Part shown: piece after piece, positions 48,853 to 64,000 of the stretch
How the letters are laid out: each line of letters begins with the position of its first letter
Numbering within the stretch: position 1 is the first letter of the stretch
Assembly (NCBI GenBank): GCA_016207605.1
Contig: JACQPJ010000016.1
Span: 2,452 to 66,451 of the forward strand
Source: Elusimicrobiota bacterium
GTDB taxonomy: Bacteria; Elusimicrobiota; Elusimicrobia; UBA1565; UBA9628
Length of the DNA stretch: 64,000 nucleotides
Reading direction: 5' to 3'
Position numbers and translations under genes: made by a program
The notes under the pieces: generated by a model
What the model was told of the DNA's origin: nothing
Database searches by the model: none
What the model saw: the letters and a program-made list of their open reading frames with translations, nothing else

Positions 48853-51033
48853 TTAGTGCCTGAAGTGCCTCATGCCGGTGAAAACCATGGCGAGCTTGTG
48901 CTCGTCGGCGGCGGCGATGACCTCCGCGTCCTTGACCGAGCCGCCGGGCTGGACCAGGGCGGTGATGCCCAGCGTCGCGGCGGCGTCGATGCCGTCGCGG
49001 AAGGGGAAGAAGGCGTCGGAGGCCAGCACCAGCGCCCTGGGCGCGGGGTTGTCGCGGCCCCAGAGCCTGTACTTGACGCCGGCCATGTGCACCGAGTCCA
49101 CGCGCGACATCTGCCCGGCGCCCAGGCCCACGGTCTGCTCGGGGCCGGCCAGCACGATGGCGTTGGACTTGACGTGCTTGGCGCAGGCCCAGGCGAAGCG
49201 CAGCGCGACGTCCTCGTCCGGCGTCGGGGCGCGCTTGGTGACGACCTTCCAGTCCGGCCCCGCGACGGCGCGGTCGGGCTCCGTGACCAGGACCTCGTCG
49301 CCGATGGAGCGCAGCTGCAGGGCCTTGGTCGGCGGTCGACTGCGCTCGAGCAGGCGCACGTTGGGTTTTTTCTTTAATGACTCCAGGGCGGCGGGCTCAT
49401 AGCCTGGGGCGACGAGGACCTCCACGAAGCGTTTGGAGAGAAGCTCGGCGATGGCGAGGGTGACGGGACGGTTGAAGGCCAGCGCGCCGCCGAAGGCGGA
49501 GAGCGGGTCGCAGGCCCAGGCCCGCTCGAAAGCCTCCTCGATCGTTTTGCCGATGCCGATGCCCGCCGGCGTGACGTGCTTGAACACGACGGCCGCGGGT
49601 TGATCGAAGTCGCTGACCGCGTCCCAGGTCCCCGCGGCGTCCAGCAGGTTGTTGTAGGAGAGCTCCTTGCCGTGAAGCTGCTTGAACGACATTCCGCTTT
49701 CGTTGGCGTAGAGCGCGGCTTTCTGGTGGGGGTTCTCGCCGTAGCGCAGGTCCTGGACCTTGGAGAGGCGGGGGCTCAAGTCCGCGGGGAAGGCGGCGCC
49801 GGTGGGCGCGGCCTGGGCGGACCAGGCGCTCGAGATCATGCCGTCGTAGCCGGCCGTGTGCCGGAAGGCCGCCAGCGCCAGGCGGCGGCGCGTCGGCTCT
49901 GAGAGCCGTCCCTGAGAGGAGGCAAGCTCCGCGAGCGTGCCGGCATAGTCTGCGGGCGAGGTGAGCACGGCCACGTCCTCGAAGTTCTTGGCCGCGGCGC
50001 GGATCAGCGCGACGCCGCCGATGTCGATCTGCTCGATCACCGCGGGATCGTACGCCGAGGGCGCGGCGGCGGCGGTCTTGGCGAAGGGGTAGAGATTAAC
50101 AACGACTAGATCGATGGGTTCCAGGCCGAAGAGCTCCGCCTCACGGATCTGGTTGGGGTCCTTGCGCCGCAGCAGGATGGCGCCGTGCACGCTTGGATGC
50201 AGGGTTTTCACGCGTCCGTTCAGGATCTCCGGGAAGCCCGTCAGGGATTCAAGAGGGCGGATGGGCACGCCCGCCGCGAGCAGGGCCTTGGCCGTGCCGG
50301 AGGTCGAGACGATCTCCACGCCCAGCTCGCGCAGGCCGCGCGCCAGCTCCACGACGCCGCTCTTGTCCGAGACCGAGATCAGCGCGCGCCGCGCCCGAGG
50401 CGAGGGGTCGGGCGGCGGAGGCAGGATCTCGGCGCGGCCGCCGGCGAGCTTGACCCGGCCCGCGCAGAGGAGCGCGACGGCCTGGGGGTAGAGGCGATGC
50501 TCCTGGACGAGCACGCGCGCGGCCAAGGTCTCCGGCGTGTCGCCGGCGACCACCGGCACGGCCGACTGCAGGAGGATGGGGCCGTGGTCGTACTCCTCGT
50601 CCACGACGTGGACCGTGGCGCCGCTGACCTTGGCGCCGGAGGCCAGGACGGCCTCGTGCACGCGGCGGCCGTACATGCCCGGTCCGCCGAAGGCGGGCAG
50701 GAGGGCGGGGTGGATGTTGAGGATGCGGCCGGGGAAGGCCTTGAGCAGGGGGGGGCGCAGCTTGAGCAGGAAGCCCGCCAGGCAGATCAGCTCCGCGCCG
50801 CGCCGGGAGCACTCGTGCGCGAGGAAGGCGTTGTACTCGTCCGGAGTCGGATGGTCGGCCGGGGCCGAGACCAGCGTCTCGACGCCCGCGGCCCGCGCGC
50901 GGCGCAGGGCGCCCGCATCGGCTTTGTTCGAGACGACCAGGACGACCTCGCCGCGCGCGCGCCCGTCGCCGCAGGCGTCGAGCAGGGCCTGGAGGTTGGT
51001 GCCCTCTCCGGAGGCGAAGACCGCGAGGTGCAT
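48853..51033 (-). CDS. purH: Fused PurN (GAR formyltransferase) :: PurH (AICAR formyltransferase / IMP cyclohydrolase).
   Basis: N-terminal roughly 200 aa are PurN-like (LVVSN...NIHPALLP); the remainder is PurH (MGS-like ISVSDKSG... then the AICARFT region), in one continuous 726-aa ORF. Confidence 0.75.
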   Translation of the reverse strand: MHLAVFASGEGTNLQALLDACGDGRARGEVVLVVSNKADAGALRRARAAGVETLVSAPADHPTPDEYNAFLAHECSRRGAELICLAGFLLKLRPPLLKAFPGRILNIHPALLPAFGGPGMYGRRVHEAVLASGAKVSGATVHVVDEEYDHGPILLQSAVPVVAGDTPETLAARVLVQEHRLYPQAVALLCAGRVKLAGGRAEILPPPPDPSPRARRALISVSDKSGVVELARGLRELGVEIVSTSGTAKALLAAGVPIRPLESLTGFPEILNGRVKTLHPSVHGAILLRRKDPNQIREAELFGLEPIDLVVVNLYPFAKTAAAAPSAYDPAVIEQIDIGGVALIRAAAKNFEDVAVLTSPADYAGTLAELASSQGRLSEPTRRRLALAAFRHTAGYDGMISSAWSAQAAPTGAAFPADLSPRLSKVQDLRYGENPHQKAALYANESGMSFKQLHGKELSYNNLLDAAGTWDAVSDFDQPAAVVFKHVTPAGIGIGKTIEEAFERAWACDPLSAFGGALAFNRPVTLAIAELLSKRFVEVLVAPGYEPAALESLKKKPNVRLLERSRPPTKALQLRSIGDEVLVTEPDRAVAGPDWKVVTKRAPTPDEDVALRFAWACAKHVKSNAIVLAGPEQTVGLGAGQMSRVDSVHMAGVKYRLWGRDNPAPRALVLASDAFFPFRDGIDAAATLGITALVQPGGSVKDAEVIAAADEHKLAMVFTGMRHFRH

Positions 51034-56535: not shown

Positions 56536-56616
56536 TCGCGGTTCGGTTCGGCGGAAGGAACCCCGCCTTACGGATTAAACTATTTTTGCCGCCCGCCCGT
56601 CAAAACGAACCGGCCG

Positions 56617-57018
56617 TCACCATTCCTCCACCCGCAAGCCGGGGACGCGCTTGAATTCGCGCACGTTGCGCGTGATGAGCGCGTGCCCCAGCGCCACGCA
56701 AGAGGCCGCCAGCCATAGGTCGTGGGCCCCGATGGGCGAGCCTTTGGCCTCCAACTCCGCCCAGAGCTGGGCGTGCGTCCTCGCCACGGCCAGCTCGATC
56801 GGCAAAACGGGGAAACGCTCCAAGATTCCTTCCACGAAGGCGGCCCGTTGCGCGCGCATCTTGGCGTCCTTGGCCCGCCAAACGCCGTGCAGAAGCTCGC
56901 TGGCGGTGACGACGGAGATGAAGAACTCATCATCCTTTCGCCCCTCGACCTTGGCGGCGACATTCAGAAGGCCGCGTTCCGCGGCGATCAGGGCGTTCGA
57001 GTCGATCAGGACCCCCAA
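56617..57018 (-). CDS. vapC: PIN-domain toxin (VapC).
   Basis: MGVLIDSNALIAAERG PIN N-terminus and acidic residues; 13-nt overlap with the antitoxin gene. Confidence 0.7.
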   Translation of the reverse strand: MGVLIDSNALIAAERGLLNVAAKVEGRKDDEFFISVVTASELLHGVWRAKDAKMRAQRAAFVEGILERFPVLPIELAVARTHAQLWAELEAKGSPIGAHDLWLAASCVALGHALITRNVREFKRVPGLRVEEW

Positions 57019-57278
57019 GGATCCCTCGCGGGGCGGCGATTCAAGGATTTTTTCGCCGCCGTCACGTCGCGCTCGAAATCACGCGCATCCCCCGGCTCCA
57101 TGCGCGGCAGCGTCTTGAGGAGCGCGGGCAACTCCCCCAGCCGCCGCCCCCGCGGCGCGGGATGGAGTTCCGCGAGGACTTTCTTCCCCCGAACGAGCAG
57201 GAAGCTTTCCCCCGCGTAGGAGACGCGGTTCAGATAATCCGAAAAATGCCTGGCCATTTCCGTCACCGTCACGTTCAT
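57006..57278 (-). CDS. Phd/YefM-family antitoxin.
   Basis: MNVTVTEMARHFSDYLNRV YefM-like N-terminus. Confidence 0.6.
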   Translation of the reverse strand: MNVTVTEMARHFSDYLNRVSYAGESFLLVRGKKVLAELHPAPRGRRLGELPALLKTLPRMEPGDARDFERDVTAAKKSLNRRPARDPWGS

Positions 57279-57566
57279 AATGCCTCCTGCCCAAACGTTT
57301 AACTGTTTATCAGTTTATCAGATAATATGATAAAAATCAATGACACAAGTAAGGAGTAAGGAATCCTGCTTGATAAATTTGTCGCGTTAGAATACCATCG
57401 GGTGAAGCCAAAAGTTGGAGCCGCACTCCATAGCCGGGGTGGTTGCAAGCGTCAAGATAGCAGGGAGAGATTCGTGTTTGAACTATTGGGCGGCATTCGG
57501 AAAGCGCACTGGAATCGCCAATGCTCTGCTGCCGTACAACGCGGGCAGGAAAATTATCTTGAATAC

Positions 57567-58133
57567 ATGAACAAATGGGCCCGAGAGAAGAATGCCGTGC
57601 CTCCTCGATCAGGCCCGGTAACGATGGATCAGTTTGTCGCCCTTGCTTCCATTTATTCTGCAAGTATCGGCTGGTTTGAGGCATTCAAAACTCCAGAGTT
57701 CGATGGGGTCTTTATTCATGTTCCTCCTGATGCCGCGTTTCGAAAGAGAGCGCTAGAATTCAGCATGTACCATCACTTTTTGCATTCGCTCATCTGGACC
57801 TCATTTGGTATCTCAGAGAAAGCGCTTTCACAGGTTGCCGAGAACTTTGGAATCGCGATGATGCTCGCAGGCTTCATCAAGGAGAAGTCTGAGTTCGATG
57901 GATTCCAAAAGCTGTTTGCCAACCGCATGTCCCAATATGGGGAGTGCCTGAAGAACCAGAAGGCGGCGGTCACACCGGCTTTATTGATGGCTGAAATTCT
58001 TGCCGGCCAACTGTTTGATGACGGAGACTCCCTTAGAAAATCCAGATTCAAAATAGCCCTGTCTTCAAACCTTGCCGCCTCGGTGGCCGACCTAAAAACA
58101 ATGTATTCGCGTTTCCAACTGAAAGCAGCATAG
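57567..58133 (+). CDS. Orphan hypothetical protein, low GC; the ORF may instead start at 57402.
   Basis: GC around 48% against about 70% background; no recognisable motif. Confidence 0.3.
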   Translation: MNKWAREKNAVPPRSGPVTMDQFVALASIYSASIGWFEAFKTPEFDGVFIHVPPDAAFRKRALEFSMYHHFLHSLIWTSFGISEKALSQVAENFGIAMMLAGFIKEKSEFDGFQKLFANRMSQYGECLKNQKAAVTPALLMAEILAGQLFDDGDSLRKSRFKIALSSNLAASVADLKTMYSRFQLKAA

Positions 58134-58196
58134 CCCCGGGCAAGAAAATCTACGGGGGAAGGGTTTGGCGTGATCTCGCGTGCTGGATGTCGAGAC

Positions 58197-60122
58197 CTAC
58201 GTATGAGCGGACGCCAGGGCGCGGGCCAACGCTGAGACGAAAGACGTCGCGTTGGGCCAGCGCGCCGAAGGCTCCGGCTCCAGCGCGCGGCCGATCACGG
58301 CGTCCACCTGGGGGTTGAGCCCCGGCACCTGCTCCGAGAGGGGCCGGTACAGCTTCTGCGCCTTCATCATCATTCCGCCGCCGCTGACCGGGAAGGGTGG
58401 GCGGCCGCAGAGCATTTCGTAGACGCAGCAGCCCAGCGCATAGATGTCGGTCGCGGGGCGCGCCAACTGGCCCGCCTCCTGCTCCGGCGCCATATAGGCG
58501 GGCGTGCCGGAAATCTCGAGCTTGGACATGGTCGAGAGCGTCTCCGCCACGCGACGAGCGATGCCGAAGTCCATTACCTTGGAGTTGTTGTTTTTATCCA
58601 GCATGATGTTGGCCGGCTTCAAGTCCTGGTGCACGATCCCTTTCAAATGCGCGTAATCCAAGGCCAGCGCCACCTGACGTGAAATCGCCACCGTTTCCTC
58701 CGGCGTCAGGGGGCTCCGGCCCAGCCTCTCGTGCAGGGTCTCCCCATCGACGCGCTCGAACACCAGGAACAGTCCCCCGTCCTCGTGGACCGAGTGGATC
58801 TCCACGATGTTGGGATGATGAAGCGAGGCCACCATGCGCGCCTCCTTCAGGAACCGCTGGCGCTCCCGTGGGTTGTTGGCCACCTCGTCCCTCAGCTTCT
58901 TGATGGCCACCGTCCGCTCCAGGGCCAGGTCCCTGGCCTCGTAGACCACGCCCATGCCGCCCGTCCCCAGCGTGCGCACGAGCTGGAAGCCGCCGGGCAT
59001 GGCGTCGGGCCGCGGCGCGGGCTGCAGCTCGTCGAGACGCACCATCCGCCGCGAGATGGACGTAAACCCCGTTTTTTTAAGCGCCGCGAACGAGAAGAAC
59101 AGCAGGGCCGTGCCCACCGCCGCCAGCCACACGAGGCTCGGCCGCGGCTTGGACTTGGGCCGCAGGGGCGAGGACTCGGCGAGCTGCTTTTGGTGATAAA
59201 GCTCCGCAAACCTGGGGTTGAATTCGGCCGCTTTCTTAAGGGCAGCCAGGGCCTCGCCGCGGCGCTTCTCGGGCACGTTCTCCCGGCTGTAGAGCCACAG
59301 GTACTTGCTGCCCTTGAGGGTCTCGTCGCCTGACTCCAGCAGCTCGCGGTGTTCCTGCCTGCGCACCGTGTCTACCGCCTTGCCGAGGTGGCCCATGACG
59401 TGGAAGCGGTCGAAGACGATCTTCTCGACGGCGTCCGGCACGCGCGCCAGTGTCGCCTGGATGGAGGGCTCCCACATATCCATCGCCACCGCCTCGATTC
59501 CCGCCAACTGCTCCTTGCTCAGCCCGGCGTAGTAGCCGTCGAGACTCTCCTGCTTGCGGTCCTCGCTGATGTGCTCGACCGTGCCCTCCTCCAAATCGCA
59601 GACCAGCGTCAGGTACCGGTGCCCTTTGGCTGCCGCCTTCTCATCAACGCCGATGTGGCGCACCACTTTGCGCGCCTTGCGGTCTCGCCCGCGCCGGACC
59701 GCCCGCTGCATCAAGCCCCACGCCTCGTCCCAGCTGATCCGCAGGATTCTCGTCGCCCCGCTTACGTCGCACCGGCTGAGCACGCCGATGGCCAGCCGCT
59801 CGAACAGCAGCGTGAACCGTGACCGTGGCTCCGCCCACGGTACCTTGACCTGCACGACGCCGTGCTCGTCGCACTCCACGCGTGGGATGCGTGCGTGCAG
59901 GTAGGTCTGGAACTGGCAGCTATCCAAGTGCCGCCACGTGCGCTCCTCGGCGTGGTCGTAGAGCGCCAGCTTCGCGGCGCACTGCGGGCATGTCCACCCG
60001 GCGTCTTGCGGCTGCTCGGCCCACACGTCCACGCGCTGTGTCTTCACGTCCAGGTTCACGCGAGCCACCGCCCACGGCGACTGCAATCCGAGCAGGTACT
60101 GGTAGAGCGCGGTGTCTTGCAT
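58197..60122 (-). pseudogene. In-frame chimera: a 3'-truncated ISL3-family transposase (about aa 1-318) fused to a TM helix plus a complete Ser/Thr protein kinase catalytic domain (about aa 325-641).
   Basis: ISL3 transposase motifs (MQDTALYQYLLGL...WRHLD...HIGVDEKA...FDRFHV...) followed by a TM segment and Hanks kinase motifs (GxGxxG, VAIK, HQDLKPAN, DFG, APE). Confidence 0.6.
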
Positions 60123-60200
60123 GGCGGCCTCCTTGCGAGGCCACCATTTTATCCTACCCGACGGTCACCCACGCCAAACCCGGAAGCGCTAGTTTCTTTT
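59170..60200 (-). mobile_element. ISL3-family insertion sequence remnant (transposase 5' portion plus upstream end region); ends not defined.
   Basis: Transposase homology; the flanking AT-rich sequence at 60180-60310 marks a compositional boundary. Confidence 0.45.
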
Positions 60201-60319
60201 TAGACAGTTCTTCTCAAATCTACTAGACGGGATAGAAATGAAAAGTTTTCTGCATATAAAATACTCTCTTATGAAAATTAACACTTTACATTAAAGAAAC
60301 AATATGTCAGCATCCAGCC

Positions 60320-60466
60320 ATGGCGGCGCAGTTCTCCGTCCTGGTCGTTGAAGACGACGCCCTCGCCCAGAAGATCATGACGGCGCATCTGGCGCCGCAC
60401 CAGGCGGATTTCGCCGATGACGCCGCGGCCGCGCGCCGCAAGCTCGCCTCGGGCCGCTACGACTGA
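60320..60466 (+). pseudogene. Response-regulator receiver domain N-terminal fragment (48 aa).
   Basis: The translation has the VLVVEDD acidic-pocket start of a receiver domain and then stops. Confidence 0.3.
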
Positions 60467-60780
60467 TGGGCCCTAATAACCCGAGTGGGTCAAGAGCTTT
60501 TCAAGGAACACTTCCTGCGCGCCGGGGACGGCTCCGACCAGTAGTGGGCGCATCTCTGCGGGATTTTAACCGCCGCTCGCGGCCTTCATGCCCAGCGCGG
60601 AGGCGGTGGCGCGGGACATCCTTCACGGCGCCGCCGCCGCCCAGCCGGCGCTCTCCGATGACGGGCCTCCACCTGGAAATGCAGCGCGTCCATAGCATCA
60701 GGCTCTCCCGCCGGTCCATCGCCCAATACAGGAAGGACATGACGCGAGACAAGAACACCATGACGATCGGAGATGCAAAG

Positions 60781-61566
60781 ATGAAGACAATCCATGCCGG
60801 GAACGCGGCCAGGAGCCTCGCGGAGCAAGCAGGCTACAGCGGCACCGTCGAGTACATATACACCGCGGACCATCCGGAGGTCCTGCGCTGGACCAGCCAC
60901 TTTGAGGGGCTGGCGGCGCGGGAGGGGGTGTTCGAGGCTTTCGAGGCGGCCTGCCCCAGGTCTTGGCGCCGCGCCACGGTCGTCAGCGCGCTCTGGCACC
61001 GATTTTCCTCATTCATGCCATGGTTCCTCTGCCAGGCTGCAGCGATGGTCTCCACGAACGAGAAGCGCCACTACGTGATCCAGACGGCCTTCGAGGAGCT
61101 TGGCATGCGCGACGCGCGCGAGATCCACTGCGACATGTTTTGGAACGCCGCCGCACAGGCAGGCGTAAGTGAGAAGGATCGGGCCGAGGTCCTGGCGGAC
61201 GTCCCGGCCGCTACGGCCCTGGCCTCCCTTCGGGGGGCGCTTCTTTCCTACGGCACGGACGAGGAGGTGCTCGGCATCCTGCTCGGCCTCGAGATCCCGG
61301 CGCGGGAGAACATCGAGACGGTGTTCCGGTCGCTGGCCCACGACGACGGGACGGCGGTTGCGCTCGACGCTCACCGCTTCTTCATCTTCCACCGCCAGAT
61401 CGAGATCGAGCACGTGCGGCTGACGGTGGCTAACTTCGTGAGGTACTGCCGGACCGAGGAACAGAGGCGCCGCTTCCAGCGGGGCTTCTCCAATGGGCTC
61501 GGGTTCTGGAGCCGCTTCTGGAACACCGCCTCCGACCTGGTGGGAGTCCCCGCCCGCGCCTCATGA
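60781..61566 (+). CDS. Putative heme-oxygenase-like (CADD/PqqC/TenA-fold) iron-dependent redox enzyme; alternative starts at 60739 and 60760.
   Basis: Helical roughly 260-aa protein with Glu/His-containing motifs (AFEELGMRDAREIH, HRFFIFHRQIEIEH) suggestive of di-iron ligand sets; GGAGA RBS before 60781. Confidence 0.4.
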   Translation: MKTIHAGNAARSLAEQAGYSGTVEYIYTADHPEVLRWTSHFEGLAAREGVFEAFEAACPRSWRRATVVSALWHRFSSFMPWFLCQAAAMVSTNEKRHYVIQTAFEELGMRDAREIHCDMFWNAAAQAGVSEKDRAEVLADVPAATALASLRGALLSYGTDEEVLGILLGLEIPARENIETVFRSLAHDDGTAVALDAHRFFIFHRQIEIEHVRLTVANFVRYCRTEEQRRRFQRGFSNGLGFWSRFWNTASDLVGVPARAS

Positions 61567-62777
61567 ACGACGCCGCCGAGTTCCGCAAGCTCATCGCGGC
61601 CTCCTTCGTCTCGCAGACGGGGAGCCATTTCCTGACCCTGGCTCTCGCTGCCTTCGTGTTGCTGAGTACCGGATCAGCCGTTCAATCAGCGCTGGTCTTC
61701 GTGCTCTCCTACCTCCCGTCCATCCTGGCGGCGCCCAGGCTGGGCCACTGGGTGGATTGCCACGTCTCCAAGCGCCTGATCGCGACCAACGAGCTGATCT
61801 CAATTGCATCCACGGTGCTGTGCGGTCTGTGCATCGAGTTCCGGCTCCCTATGGCTGCCCTGTGCGCCGTGCTCGCTCTCCGTTCCATCCTGCTTTTTGT
61901 TGGCCGCGCCGCCGGAACCAAATGGCTCAAGCTGATCACGTCCCCGGCCCTGCAGACGGGGCGGATCAAGCTCTTCTATCTGGCTTTCTTCCTGTCTACC
62001 GCCGTCTCCGGCCTGCTGGCGGCCCTCGTGCTCAAGCATGCCTCCATCCGCATGGTCGTGGGCATCGACGTGGCGAGCTATCTGCTCGGGATCGCGCTGT
62101 ACATGACGCTCGCCGCGCCGCCCACCGAGCCGGCCGGCCAGGCTCCAGCGCCCGAAGGCGAGGCCCTGCAATCGCTGCGCGAGACCCTGGACGCGATCTT
62201 CGCGATACCCGTGGTTCGGACTTCCTTCCTGGCGGTCTGCCTGTCGCAGGCGGTCTTCCAAGGGGCGTACTCAGCTTTTGTCTCCTACCTGCCGATCTCG
62301 GTCTTCAAGGTGGGCGTGGGCGGGGTGGGCTCCTTCCAGCTCGCGGCCTCGATCGGCATCATTGGAGGCTTTCTCATCAACTGGCTGGCGGCCGGCATCC
62401 TCGCGGAGATTGACCCACAGGTCCCGAGAAAGGCTCTCTGGATCTCCGGCCTGGCGGCGGCGTTCCTCATCTGCGCCGTGTCCATCCCCGCGGTGAGGGT
62501 GAGCCTCGGCTCGTTCCTTCTCTTGAACCTGGCGTACGAATGCGTGTGGCTTCACCATAACTCCGAGTTCTTCCGCGCAAGCCCCAAGCGCCACGCGGCA
62601 CGCTACCAGTTCATACTTTCGTCGTGTGCCGCCTTCCTGATGTCGGCCATGACTCTGGCCTACTCCGCCGCGGTGCAATGGCTGGGTCCCTCCTCTGGGA
62701 CCCTTTCGGTCCTCATGGGTGGAGTGCTGGTCACAGCGTACGCGGGGATGGCGCCATCCTGGAGGCAGGGCTCATGA
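61563..62777 (+). CDS. MFS transporter (12 TM).
   Basis: Hydrophobic profile with 12 predicted helices; ATGA overlaps at both ends. Confidence 0.7.
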   Translation: MNDAAEFRKLIAASFVSQTGSHFLTLALAAFVLLSTGSAVQSALVFVLSYLPSILAAPRLGHWVDCHVSKRLIATNELISIASTVLCGLCIEFRLPMAALCAVLALRSILLFVGRAAGTKWLKLITSPALQTGRIKLFYLAFFLSTAVSGLLAALVLKHASIRMVVGIDVASYLLGIALYMTLAAPPTEPAGQAPAPEGEALQSLRETLDAIFAIPVVRTSFLAVCLSQAVFQGAYSAFVSYLPISVFKVGVGGVGSFQLAASIGIIGGFLINWLAAGILAEIDPQVPRKALWISGLAAAFLICAVSIPAVRVSLGSFLLLNLAYECVWLHHNSEFFRASPKRHAARYQFILSSCAAFLMSAMTLAYSAAVQWLGPSSGTLSVLMGGVLVTAYAGMAPSWRQGS

Positions 62778-64000
62778 CGAGATCCGTGGTGTTCCTGGAA
62801 CCGAAGGGCACGATCCTCGAAGTCGTGCGCGCCGCCAAGCGCCGGGGCTTCCATGTCGCCGCGCTCCGCTCGGACCCGGCGCTCCTGGACGGCGCGCCGG
62901 AGCCGTACGCCTCGGCCGTTCCCCTGATCGACGAGATCATTCCCATCCAGGGCTGGGACGCCGAGTCCGCCGTCCTCGCCGCGTGCGAGGCGGTCCACGC
63001 CCGCGCGCCCATCACCGGCCTCTACGCGGGGATGGACCCATGCGCGTCCATCCTGGCGCGTCTGCGCCGCAGGTTCAGCCTGCCGGCCCCAGACCCAGAG
63101 GCCATCGCGCTGGTGCTCAACAAGTTCGCGCTGAGGCGGCGTCTCGTGGAGCTGGGCCTGAGCCGCCTCAAGAACGCCCACAGCTCCGAGGCGGAAGGCT
63201 GGACCTCATGGCCCTTTCGGGGTGCCGCCTATTTCAAGCCGGTCCACGGCTTCTTCAGCGCCTATGTGAGCCGTTGCGAGAACTTGGCCGACTTCCGCGC
63301 AGCGCGGGATCGCTGGCGGACCGGCAACGGCACCGATCCGGCTTGGCTCAAGGACTATCTACACTCGCTCAACGAATACCACCTCGAGGAGGCCTTCGAC
63401 GGGGAGCTTCTGTCCGTGGAGGCCATAGCGAGCGGAGGCCGCTACGAGCCGTTGGGCCTGCTCTCGCGCATCCTCTACTCGCGGGACCCCGTGGTCGAGA
63501 TGGGCTCCTGCTTCCCCTATCCCCATCCGCTCAGCGGCAAGATCATCGACCTGGCGCGGCGCGCCCACGCGGCGCTCGGCCTCCACGACGGGCCGACCCA
63601 TACGGAAATGATCGTCAGTCCTGCCGGGGAGGTCGAGATCATAGACCTCAACCCCAGGTTCGTTGGCGCTGACGTCCTCCAGTCGATCAACAATGCCTTC
63701 GGCGTCCGGGTGGAGGAAGCACTGCTCGACTATGCCATCGGGAAGCCGGCCCGGGTCGCGCCGGAGGATCGTCGCTTCTCGTGCCTGCAATACTTCCTGC
63801 CTCCCCGGGTACCGGTCCTGGAGACGGTGGACTTCCCCGAGGTCCCCGAGGTCAAGTTCCGCGCCACCTTTATCAAGCCGGGTACCCCAATATCGAGCAA
63901 CGACCGCCAGATCGACTATCTTGGCTGCTACCTGACCGTAATGCCGGAGTTCGAGGCCGCCCTTAGCCGCTCGCGCGAGCTGCGCGCGGCGGTCATGATC
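62774..64000 (+). CDS. ATP-grasp domain protein (amino-acid ligase type), 3' end beyond the window.
   Basis: Translated by hand from 62774 with no stop to the end of the window; HTEMI and IIDLNPRF motifs of the ATP-grasp fold. Confidence 0.6.
   Translation, partial: MTRSVVFLEPKGTILEVVRAAKRRGFHVAALRSDPALLDGAPEPYASAVPLIDEIIPIQGWDAESAVLAACEAVHARAPITGLYAGMDPCASILARLRRRFSLPAPDPEAIALVLNKFALRRRLVELGLSRLKNAHSSEAEGWTSWPFRGAAYFKPVHGFFSAYVSRCENLADFRAARDRWRTGNGTDPAWLKDYLHSLNEYHLEEAFDGELLSVEAIASGGRYEPLGLLSRILYSRDPVVEMGSCFPYPHPLSGKIIDLARRAHAALGLHDGPTHTEMIVSPAGEVEIIDLNPRFVGADVLQSINNAFGVRVEEALLDYAIGKPARVAPEDRRFSCLQYFLPPRVPVLETVDFPEVPEVKFRATFIKPGTPISSNDRQIDYLGCYLTVMPEFEAALSRSRELRAAVMI

Follow-up and report, generated by a model that had tools for sequence, protein, structure and literature searches.

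Primate SETMAR is a domesticated transposase fusion that is conserved across species and for which expression has been shown. A comparable combination of parts is described here in a 64,000-nucleotide stretch of Elusimicrobiota DNA (contig JACQPJ010000016.1; the whole stretch is called the window below), where a single 641-aa open reading frame (ORF) begins as an ISL3 transposase and ends as a Ser/Thr protein kinase. Like SETMAR, it holds a transposase-derived DNA-binding module and an unrelated enzymatic domain in one polypeptide; unlike SETMAR, the fusion was found in one genome only and shows no sign of conservation or expression. For ISL3 insertion sequences (IS), an effect on a neighbouring gene has been described upstream of folT in Enterococcus faecium, where the intact 3' end of the IS donates an outward -35 box to an intact gene and so forms a hybrid promoter (PMC13216065). 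In literature searches for precedents, this was the one pertinent ISL3 paper, the results otherwise being mainly unrelated. The window is similar in that an ISL3 element would provide expression signals to an adjoining host gene, but it differs in that its IS has lost the 3' end and the fragment of the host gene forms a translational fusion with the transposase.

The ISL3 fragment in the window shares only about 40% identity with named plasmid-borne elements of the family such as ISEc53; its nearest relatives form an environmental lineage common in Nitrospira and other metagenome-assembled genomes (MAGs). The counterparts of the kinase half are uncharacterised Elusimicrobiota proteins (for instance P0121, P0125, P0131 and P0138) in which a tetratricopeptide repeat (TPR)-like region is followed by a transmembrane (TM) helix and a kinase domain. 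The window gene matches them from the last TPR-like helix to the C-terminus; in contrast to them, it has lost the N-terminal TPR-like region together with its own start, ISL3 sequence stands in their place, and its genomic neighbourhood differs.

The ORF runs uninterrupted over 58197..60122 on the minus strand. A first-pass annotation made from this DNA had described one continuous reading frame with an ISL3-like N-terminus, followed by a TM helix and a full Hanks-type kinase domain, and this description was borne out by our analysis, as no frameshift or stop separates the two halves. Pfam profile searches placed Zn_ribbon_ISL3 at residues 43-87 (window 59996-59862, minus strand), HTH_Tnp_ISL3 at residues 92-142 (59849-59697, minus strand) and DDE_Tnp_ISL3 at residues 157-313, the latter covering only profile positions 1-153 of 240; all three domains scored above their gathering cut-offs. 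The NCBIfam model transpos_ISL3 (NF033550) likewise matched residues 36-312, scoring 222 bits where the cut-off is 180, with only profile positions 5-289 of 370 covered. The Pfam kinase domain Pkinase (PF00069) was found at residues 380-622 with 175 bits against a cut-off of 31.7 (E-value 2.2e-51), and the hydrophobic helix precedes it at residues 330-348. The GC content at third codon positions (GC3) is 0.90 in the ISL3 part and 0.88 in the kinase part, compared with 0.91-0.93 in housekeeping genes of the host; because GC3 is host-like in both parts, the frame of the ORF is the coding frame on both sides of the join. The 641-aa ORF is a true chimera of an ISL3 transposase fragment and the 3' part of a TPR-TM-kinase gene. 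It appears to be an ordinary one-off rearrangement scar, a piece of genome debris in one Elusimicrobiota genome and not a new kind of protein.

To define the anatomy of the ISL3 remnant, its intact relatives were compared in different genomic contexts, taking the points at which flanking sequences diverge as the termini of the element. The available relatives are at least 77% identical to one another, and the intact element measures 1307 bp with 14-bp terminal inverted repeats (IRs). It begins with GGCGCTTCCGGGTT, about 67 nt before the ATG of the transposase, and its other terminus, AACCCGGAAGCGCC, overlaps the stop codon; at least one intact relative (L001) is flanked on both sides by an AT-rich 8-bp target-site duplication, TTAAAAAC. 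The window, having lost the right end of the element, shows no such duplication. The closest intact transposases have 408 aa and are 82-83% identical to the window sequence at the nucleotide level and 85-87% at the amino acid level, the protein match being confined to the first 46% of the query.

Like these elements, the window retains a left inverted repeat (IRL) at 60177..60190 on the minus strand, which reads AGCGCTTCCGGGTT against GGCGCTTCCGGGTT (13/14 positions, the outermost G being changed to A) and is the sole match to the IR in the window at one mismatch or fewer. Nucleotide homology to intact elements starts at 60189-60195 and covers the IS leader (60123..60176, minus strand), which carries a Shine-Dalgarno (SD) sequence AGGAGG and a hairpin that overlaps it. 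Transposase codons 1-290 follow at 59253..60122 (minus strand), encoding the zinc ribbon, the helix-turn-helix (HTH) and the beginning of the DDE domain, in which D160 and D215 lie. In all, the 5' 938 bp of the 1307-bp element is present, including the first 134 residues of the DDE_Tnp_ISL3 domain. Unlike an intact ISL3 element, the window fragment has lost the last 369 bp, comprising the 118 C-terminal codons with E370 and the right IR. The residues D160, D215 and E370 are among the invariant acidic residues in 116 intact relatives, so that only the two aspartates are kept; E370 lies within the motif TNAMSEGLNSKIQK, and the whole E370/N373/K motif is gone from the fragment. From general knowledge of DDE transposases and of the family, we take E370 to be the third catalytic residue; a search of the PDB by sequence returned no ISL3 structure. 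With a single end left and its catalytic site incomplete, the IS fragment is immobile, and it cannot be an autonomous or a mobilisable element. Outside the IRL, about 130 bp of AT-rich DNA (60191..60319), in which GC falls to about 0.54, is the presumed original target of the IS insertion.

The right IR was not found anywhere in the 64 kb, and looser matches with two or three mismatches occur at the level expected by chance (20 versus 19.9 expected). This bears on the reading that the kinase travelled as cargo. Some ISL3 members carry passenger genes, and the kinase does lie 3' of the transposase on the same strand, as a passenger between two IRs would. However, no right IR is present downstream or elsewhere in the window, and one beyond its borders is irreconcilable with the conserved pyrB-pyrD synteny that begins 1.6 kb downstream of the kinase stop. 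Moreover, the transposase breaks off within a domain, the kinase sequence sets in within a repeat after the loss of its 5' part, and the two form one ORF instead of two genes. A passenger-carrying ISL3-type transposon is thus effectively refuted.

The boundary between IS-derived and kinase-derived DNA lies at window position 59253|59252 on the minus strand, between codon 290 (GAG) and codon 291 (GCC), with a margin of about one codon on either side. Protein alignment, tblastn and blastn agree that ISL3 homology stops after codon 290 (window 59255-59253), and comparing the sequence codon by codon with those of four intact IS copies and three kinase relatives puts the join at the same place, 290/291. 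Alignment to intact ISL3 elements, which the first-pass annotation had proposed, thus yielded both the truncation point and the left inverted repeat; it also corrected the earlier estimate that transposase homology ends near residue 318 with a loss of roughly 100 aa, since the end is at residue 290 and 118 aa are missing. Residues 291-328 are already kinase-family sequence, consisting of the last TPR-like helix and a linker. Compared with the intact IS copies, the join is in frame and clean with respect to the codon. With three kinase relatives aligned in register, at most the GAG codon is common to IS and kinase at the junction; a candidate microhomology, 'RGE', was considered and rejected, being unsupported without the parental sequence and reduced by this alignment to that single shared codon.

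Just inside the breakpoint, the 8 nt GAAGCGCC at 59268-59261 (minus strand) equals the terminal 8 nt of the right IR in the correct orientation, 8 nt from the join; allowing one extra base, the match extends to 12/13 (CCCGAGAAGCGCC versus CCCGGAAGCGCC). This 8-mer is absent at the corresponding position in the intact IS relatives examined. It raises the question of whether the transposase itself made the deletion, with the IRL and the internal pseudo-end GAAGCGCC attacking a nearby site in the kinase gene and deleting the DNA between them, a course of events that requires GCGGCGAG just before GCCCTGGCT in the parental kinase. The identity and orientation of the 8-mer speak for it, but GAAGCGCC ends 8 nt short of the last IS-homologous base, and the intervening codons look IS-derived: CGC GGC GAG, between the 8-mer and the join, matches the R-[DGE]-E codons of the IS relatives. 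In addition, the window contains 17 copies of the 8-mer, against 11.4 expected, and the chance of finding it within 10 nt of the join in the right orientation, about 0.003, was calculated post hoc and is suggestive only. We consider such a transposase-made deletion very unlikely.

Codons 291-641 represent the 3' 60% of a kinase gene whose intact relatives encode 569-616 aa. When residues 288-641 were used as a query, such full-length proteins, mostly from Elusimicrobiota MAGs, were retrieved with 60-64% identity and 98-99% coverage, so that the intact relatives whose existence the first-pass annotation had suggested checking were indeed found as TPR-TM-kinase proteins. TPR Pfam matches occur in the N-terminal half of many of them. 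The kinase-derived part opens with a remnant of the last TPR-like helix, ALAALKKAAEFNPRFAELY, and a linker (residues 291-329; 59136..59252, minus strand), the former aligning with the ...LADLKxAAxLDxQFDxLY... segment of the relatives. It continues with a single hydrophobic transmembrane-type helix, LVWLAAVGTALLFFSFAAL (residues 330-348; 59079..59135, minus strand), with a Kyte-Doolittle peak of 2.2 at 337-340. Every full-length relative has one such helix, placed about 40 residues ahead of the kinase domain, and none has a signal-like segment at its N-terminus.

The Hanks-type Ser/Thr kinase domain itself (58257..58985, minus strand) is complete. All the motifs listed in the earlier annotation were located, with GTGGMGVVY at residue 386, VAIKKL at 405, HQDLKPAN at 498, DFG at 518 and APE at 545. 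The catalytic loop is of the non-RD type, and HQDLKP[AGS]N is found in all the relatives aligned; judged from these sequences, the non-RD HQDLKPxN loop is a family trait and not a lesion. The native C-terminal tail and stop codon are also present (58197..58256, minus strand), the relatives ending alike in ...ALARSLS. Residue A291 aligns with residue 224 of P0121, 239 of P0138 and 258 of P0125, which means that about 223-257 N-terminal residues of the kinase are missing. The proposal that a receptor kinase had lost its N-terminal sensor therefore holds as far as the loss is concerned; the lost part is a TPR-like region, and its role as a sensor is an assumption only.

The intact family from P0121 to P0138 has about 300 N-terminal residues without a signal peptide, one TM helix and then the kinase. 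Its topology is not obvious: either its large N-terminus crosses the membrane with no signal, or its kinase domain points outward. In other MAGs, the kinase-only proteins P0139, P0141 and P0142 (261-330 aa) are 66-69% identical to the kinase domain of the window, and their N-termini are unrelated or missing. Members of the family seem to have been repeatedly 5'-truncated, or miscalled, in other genomes.

Matches of the kinase domain to named systems were also considered. The PknB/Stk1 PASTA model NF033483 reached 265 bits against a cut-off of 450, over profile positions 9-271 of 563, corresponding to the kinase domain only; judged by this profile match, the fusion ORF has no PASTA repeats. The PADLOC models for PD-T4-6 scored up to 274 bits, restricted to the kinase domain (residues 374-638), and the NCBIfam model for Mad6 of the MADS system scored 165 bits against a cut-off of 460. 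An assignment as a PD-T4-6 or MADS defence kinase was considered and finds little support in these matches, which span the generic kinase domain only; the intact relatives lie among housekeeping genes. No partner defence genes were found near the fusion.

Searches of the window by tblastn found neither the ISL3 C-terminus nor the kinase N-terminus elsewhere in it, and the window contains no second IS copy and no repeat at the junction. The exact 641-aa protein has no match in public protein records. To search at the nucleotide level, the junction was written as a 54-nt pattern that is degenerate at every third codon position and tolerates all synonymous change; this pattern had no match in 596 Gb of genomes or in 241 million metagenome records. 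Three protein searches, among them a word-seeded search and an exhaustive HMMER scan of 1.84 billion representatives, returned no protein combining ISL3 and kinase sequence among their 384 best matches. With both types of search, the full-length query retrieved ISL3-only or kinase-only proteins.

The best explanation for this arrangement, and one that we regard as probable, is an ISL3 insertion followed by an internal deletion that joined the two genes in frame by chance. The 1307-bp element, oriented like the kinase gene, would have inserted into AT-rich DNA located either upstream of this gene or within its 5' part. The deletion that came later would have had one end after transposase codon 290 and the other at about codon 225-257 of the intact kinase, removing the last 369 bp of the IS, any intervening DNA and the TPR-like N-terminal region of the kinase. 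By coincidence, with a prior probability of about 1 in 3, the two frames would have matched, giving the continuous 641-aa ORF. The kinase fragment would be left without its own start and promoter, and the hybrid, if made, would be translated from the transposase start codon. An insertion plus a deletion that removed the N-terminal part of the kinase had already been put forward in the first-pass annotation, and the retained IRL, the absent right end of the IS and the missing kinase N-terminus all support it. The order of the two events, and illegitimate recombination as the route of the deletion, are what we infer from this anatomy.

Several points weigh against this insertion-and-deletion explanation. 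Without the sequence of the parental kinase, the junction does not reveal the mechanism of the deletion, and the view is limited to 64 kb, so that an inversion or translocation could have placed the missing halves elsewhere. The join is known from the assembled sequence alone. Finally, the lack of decay, the presence of all kinase motifs and the intact start codon and SD also fit a maintained gene.

The third of these points leads to the suspicion that assembly or binning wrongly joined an ISL3 copy to a kinase from elsewhere or from another organism. The nearest relatives of both host and kinase all come from MAGs, suggesting that the window does too; other phyla, Nitrospira among them, are rich in this ISL3 lineage; metagenome contigs bearing the same IS show swapped flanks (L005 and L006 have a common right flank and different left flanks); and the junction occurs in no other dataset searched. 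Assemblers mis-join at shared repeats, however, and this join falls within unique IS sequence, where an assembler would meet no shared repeat, and is exactly in frame at a codon boundary. The DNA on the IS side (59253-64000) has a tetranucleotide correlation of r = 0.94 to the core of the window, similar to other Elusimicrobiota loci (0.94-0.96) and unlike Nitrospira-type contigs bearing the IS (0.69-0.78). In addition, the GC3 of the IS fragment is host-like, while that of the nearest IS relatives is 0.81-0.86. An artefact is accordingly quite unlikely.

In the ISL3 family itself, three metagenome contigs (L005, L006 and L007) with identical intact IS copies have a common right flank and different left flanks, which suggests either that the IS copies recombined with one another or that the assemblies are chimeric at the repeat. 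These flanks are a reminder that contigs in the vicinity of this IS family are sometimes unreliable.

To assess the age of the fusion, both halves were compared with their intact relatives. The ratio of nonsynonymous to synonymous substitution rates (dN/dS) of the ISL3 fragment against intact copies is 0.11-0.13, compared with 0.10 for pairs of intact copies that are equally distant, and the fragment deviates at 3/155 near-invariant sites, within the range of 0-5 seen for intact copies. The kinase part deviates at 17/156 positions that are invariant among ten relatives, the most divergent relative deviating at 11; these changes are mostly conservative, fitting an outgroup. Neither half therefore shows detectable decay, which may mean either a recent event or maintenance. 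We take the event as recent because no second occurrence was found and because stop-free frames are common at 69% GC; the fusion looks recent, and its product is probably not under selection.

Judged from the sequence, the hybrid may be translatable from the start codon, SD and leader of the IS. A hairpin, GGCCTC-GCAAG-GAGGCC (60142-60126, minus strand), was predicted over the transposase SD by folding the leader. Intact relatives have a hairpin in the same place (leaders of L001, L005 and L009), and one over the SD also appears in the consensus fold of six elements, where its four pairs show no compensatory changes; in that fold, the IRL is moreover paired with codons 2-6, an interaction for which one covarying pair gives weak support. 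The hairpin over the SD would damp translation from read-through transcripts, although covariation support for it is weak. In the predicted product, N-terminal modules that bind the IR would be followed by a broken transposase catalytic domain, a single TM helix and the intact kinase. The topology of a receptor-type kinase conflicts with this layout, since the zinc-ribbon/HTH N-terminus, 329 residues long and lacking a signal peptide, would have to be exported for the kinase to be cytoplasmic.

These properties bear on the alternative that the fusion is a functional new gene, expressed from IS signals and retained because it is useful, be it as a kinase deregulated by the loss of its TPR region, as a kinase tethered to an IR-binding zinc-ribbon/HTH module or as a truncated transposase inhibiting other ISL3 copies. 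The continuous ORF, the host-like GC3 on both sides of the join, the intact SD and ATG and the full set of catalytic kinase motifs are what such a gene would show, as are the absence of surplus changes at conserved ISL3 sites and the mostly conservative nature of the changes in the kinase. On the other hand, the fusion is unique among the public data searched, an in-frame join has a substantial prior probability, and at 69% GC stop-free frames are common, with many long spurious ORFs; the absence of decay is equally well explained by a recent event. The topology, the hairpin over the SD and a neighbourhood of mobile-element debris likewise count against a functional gene, and we regard it as unlikely. 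It is still more doubtful that the hybrid is made and has acquired a specific new role, in which the zinc-ribbon/HTH part, still expected to bind the ends of ISL3 elements, would bring a constitutively active non-RD kinase to DNA or to transposase complexes, or in which the protein would act as a membrane-tethered dominant-negative regulator of ISL3 transposition. Were this improbable role real, the locus would show the domestication of a bacterial transposase at a very early stage, just after its origin.

As an insertion and deletion that fused two gene fragments, the locus has little weight for biology at large, being a clean and precisely mapped example of such an event. It does call for caution in annotation: automated gene calling would yield a 641-aa 'ISL3 transposase / protein kinase', which surveys of domain architecture could take for a new type; the fusion is better flagged as a chimeric remnant. 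If expressed, it would offer a rare snapshot of the raw material for bacterial transposase domestication.

The fusion lies in variable accessory DNA that is rich in mobile-element debris. PyrB, encoded in the window, is 79%, 77% and 67% identical to that of three Elusimicrobiota MAGs; since the matches of PyrB and of the kinase both belong to Elusimicrobiota, kinase family and host agree taxonomically. Nucleotide synteny with the nearest Elusimicrobiota MAGs, through pyrB, pyrC, pyrD and beyond, ends at about window position 56586. To the right of this point the window has nothing in common with them, and the genes that lie upstream of pyrB in the relatives are absent from the window. A comparison with an empty site upstream of pyrB in the nearest MAGs was tried and abandoned, as the synteny stops at pyrB. 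The intact kinase relatives adjoin IMPDH, hemB and hemL, in neighbourhoods that have nothing in common with the window, and an attempt to reconstruct the deleted DNA from their synteny was given up for this reason.

Where the synteny ends, a VapC-type PIN toxin (133 aa) and its 90-aa upstream partner, read together as a VapBC pair, are encoded at 56617-57278 (minus strand); the best NCBIfam match of the toxin is the tRNA(fMet)-specific VapC model, with a score below the cut-off. It is followed at 57280-58196 by a low-GC segment (0.49 in a window of 0.69 GC) whose tetranucleotide usage is foreign, with a correlation of r = 0.14 to the core. This segment holds overlapping repeats spaced by 8 bp, TAACTGTTTATCAGTTTATC (57292-57327), and an orphan 243-aa ORF (57402-58133, plus strand) that has no match in Pfam, NCBIfam, PADLOC or PHROGs. 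Because the low-GC segment starts immediately 3' of the kinase stop, a second breakpoint is placed at that stop. Neither tRNA genes nor Rfam families were found near the border of the island.

On the other side of the fusion, a 48-aa ORF at 60320-60466 on the plus strand (MAAQFSVLVVEDD...GRYD followed by a stop) matches Response_reg over positions 1-44 of 111 with a non-significant E-value of 0.11. It resembles the first third of a receiver domain cut by a stop and is possibly another gene remnant, if the match is real. The right-hand 7.4 kb also holds a haem-oxygenase-like gene and a major facilitator superfamily (MFS) transporter. Elsewhere in the window, a 726-aa ORF (48853-51033, minus strand) unites Formyl_trans_N (PurN-like), MGS and AICARFT_IMPCHas (PurH) domains in a single protein and has the appearance of a PurN-PurH fusion, an arrangement other than that usual in bacteria.

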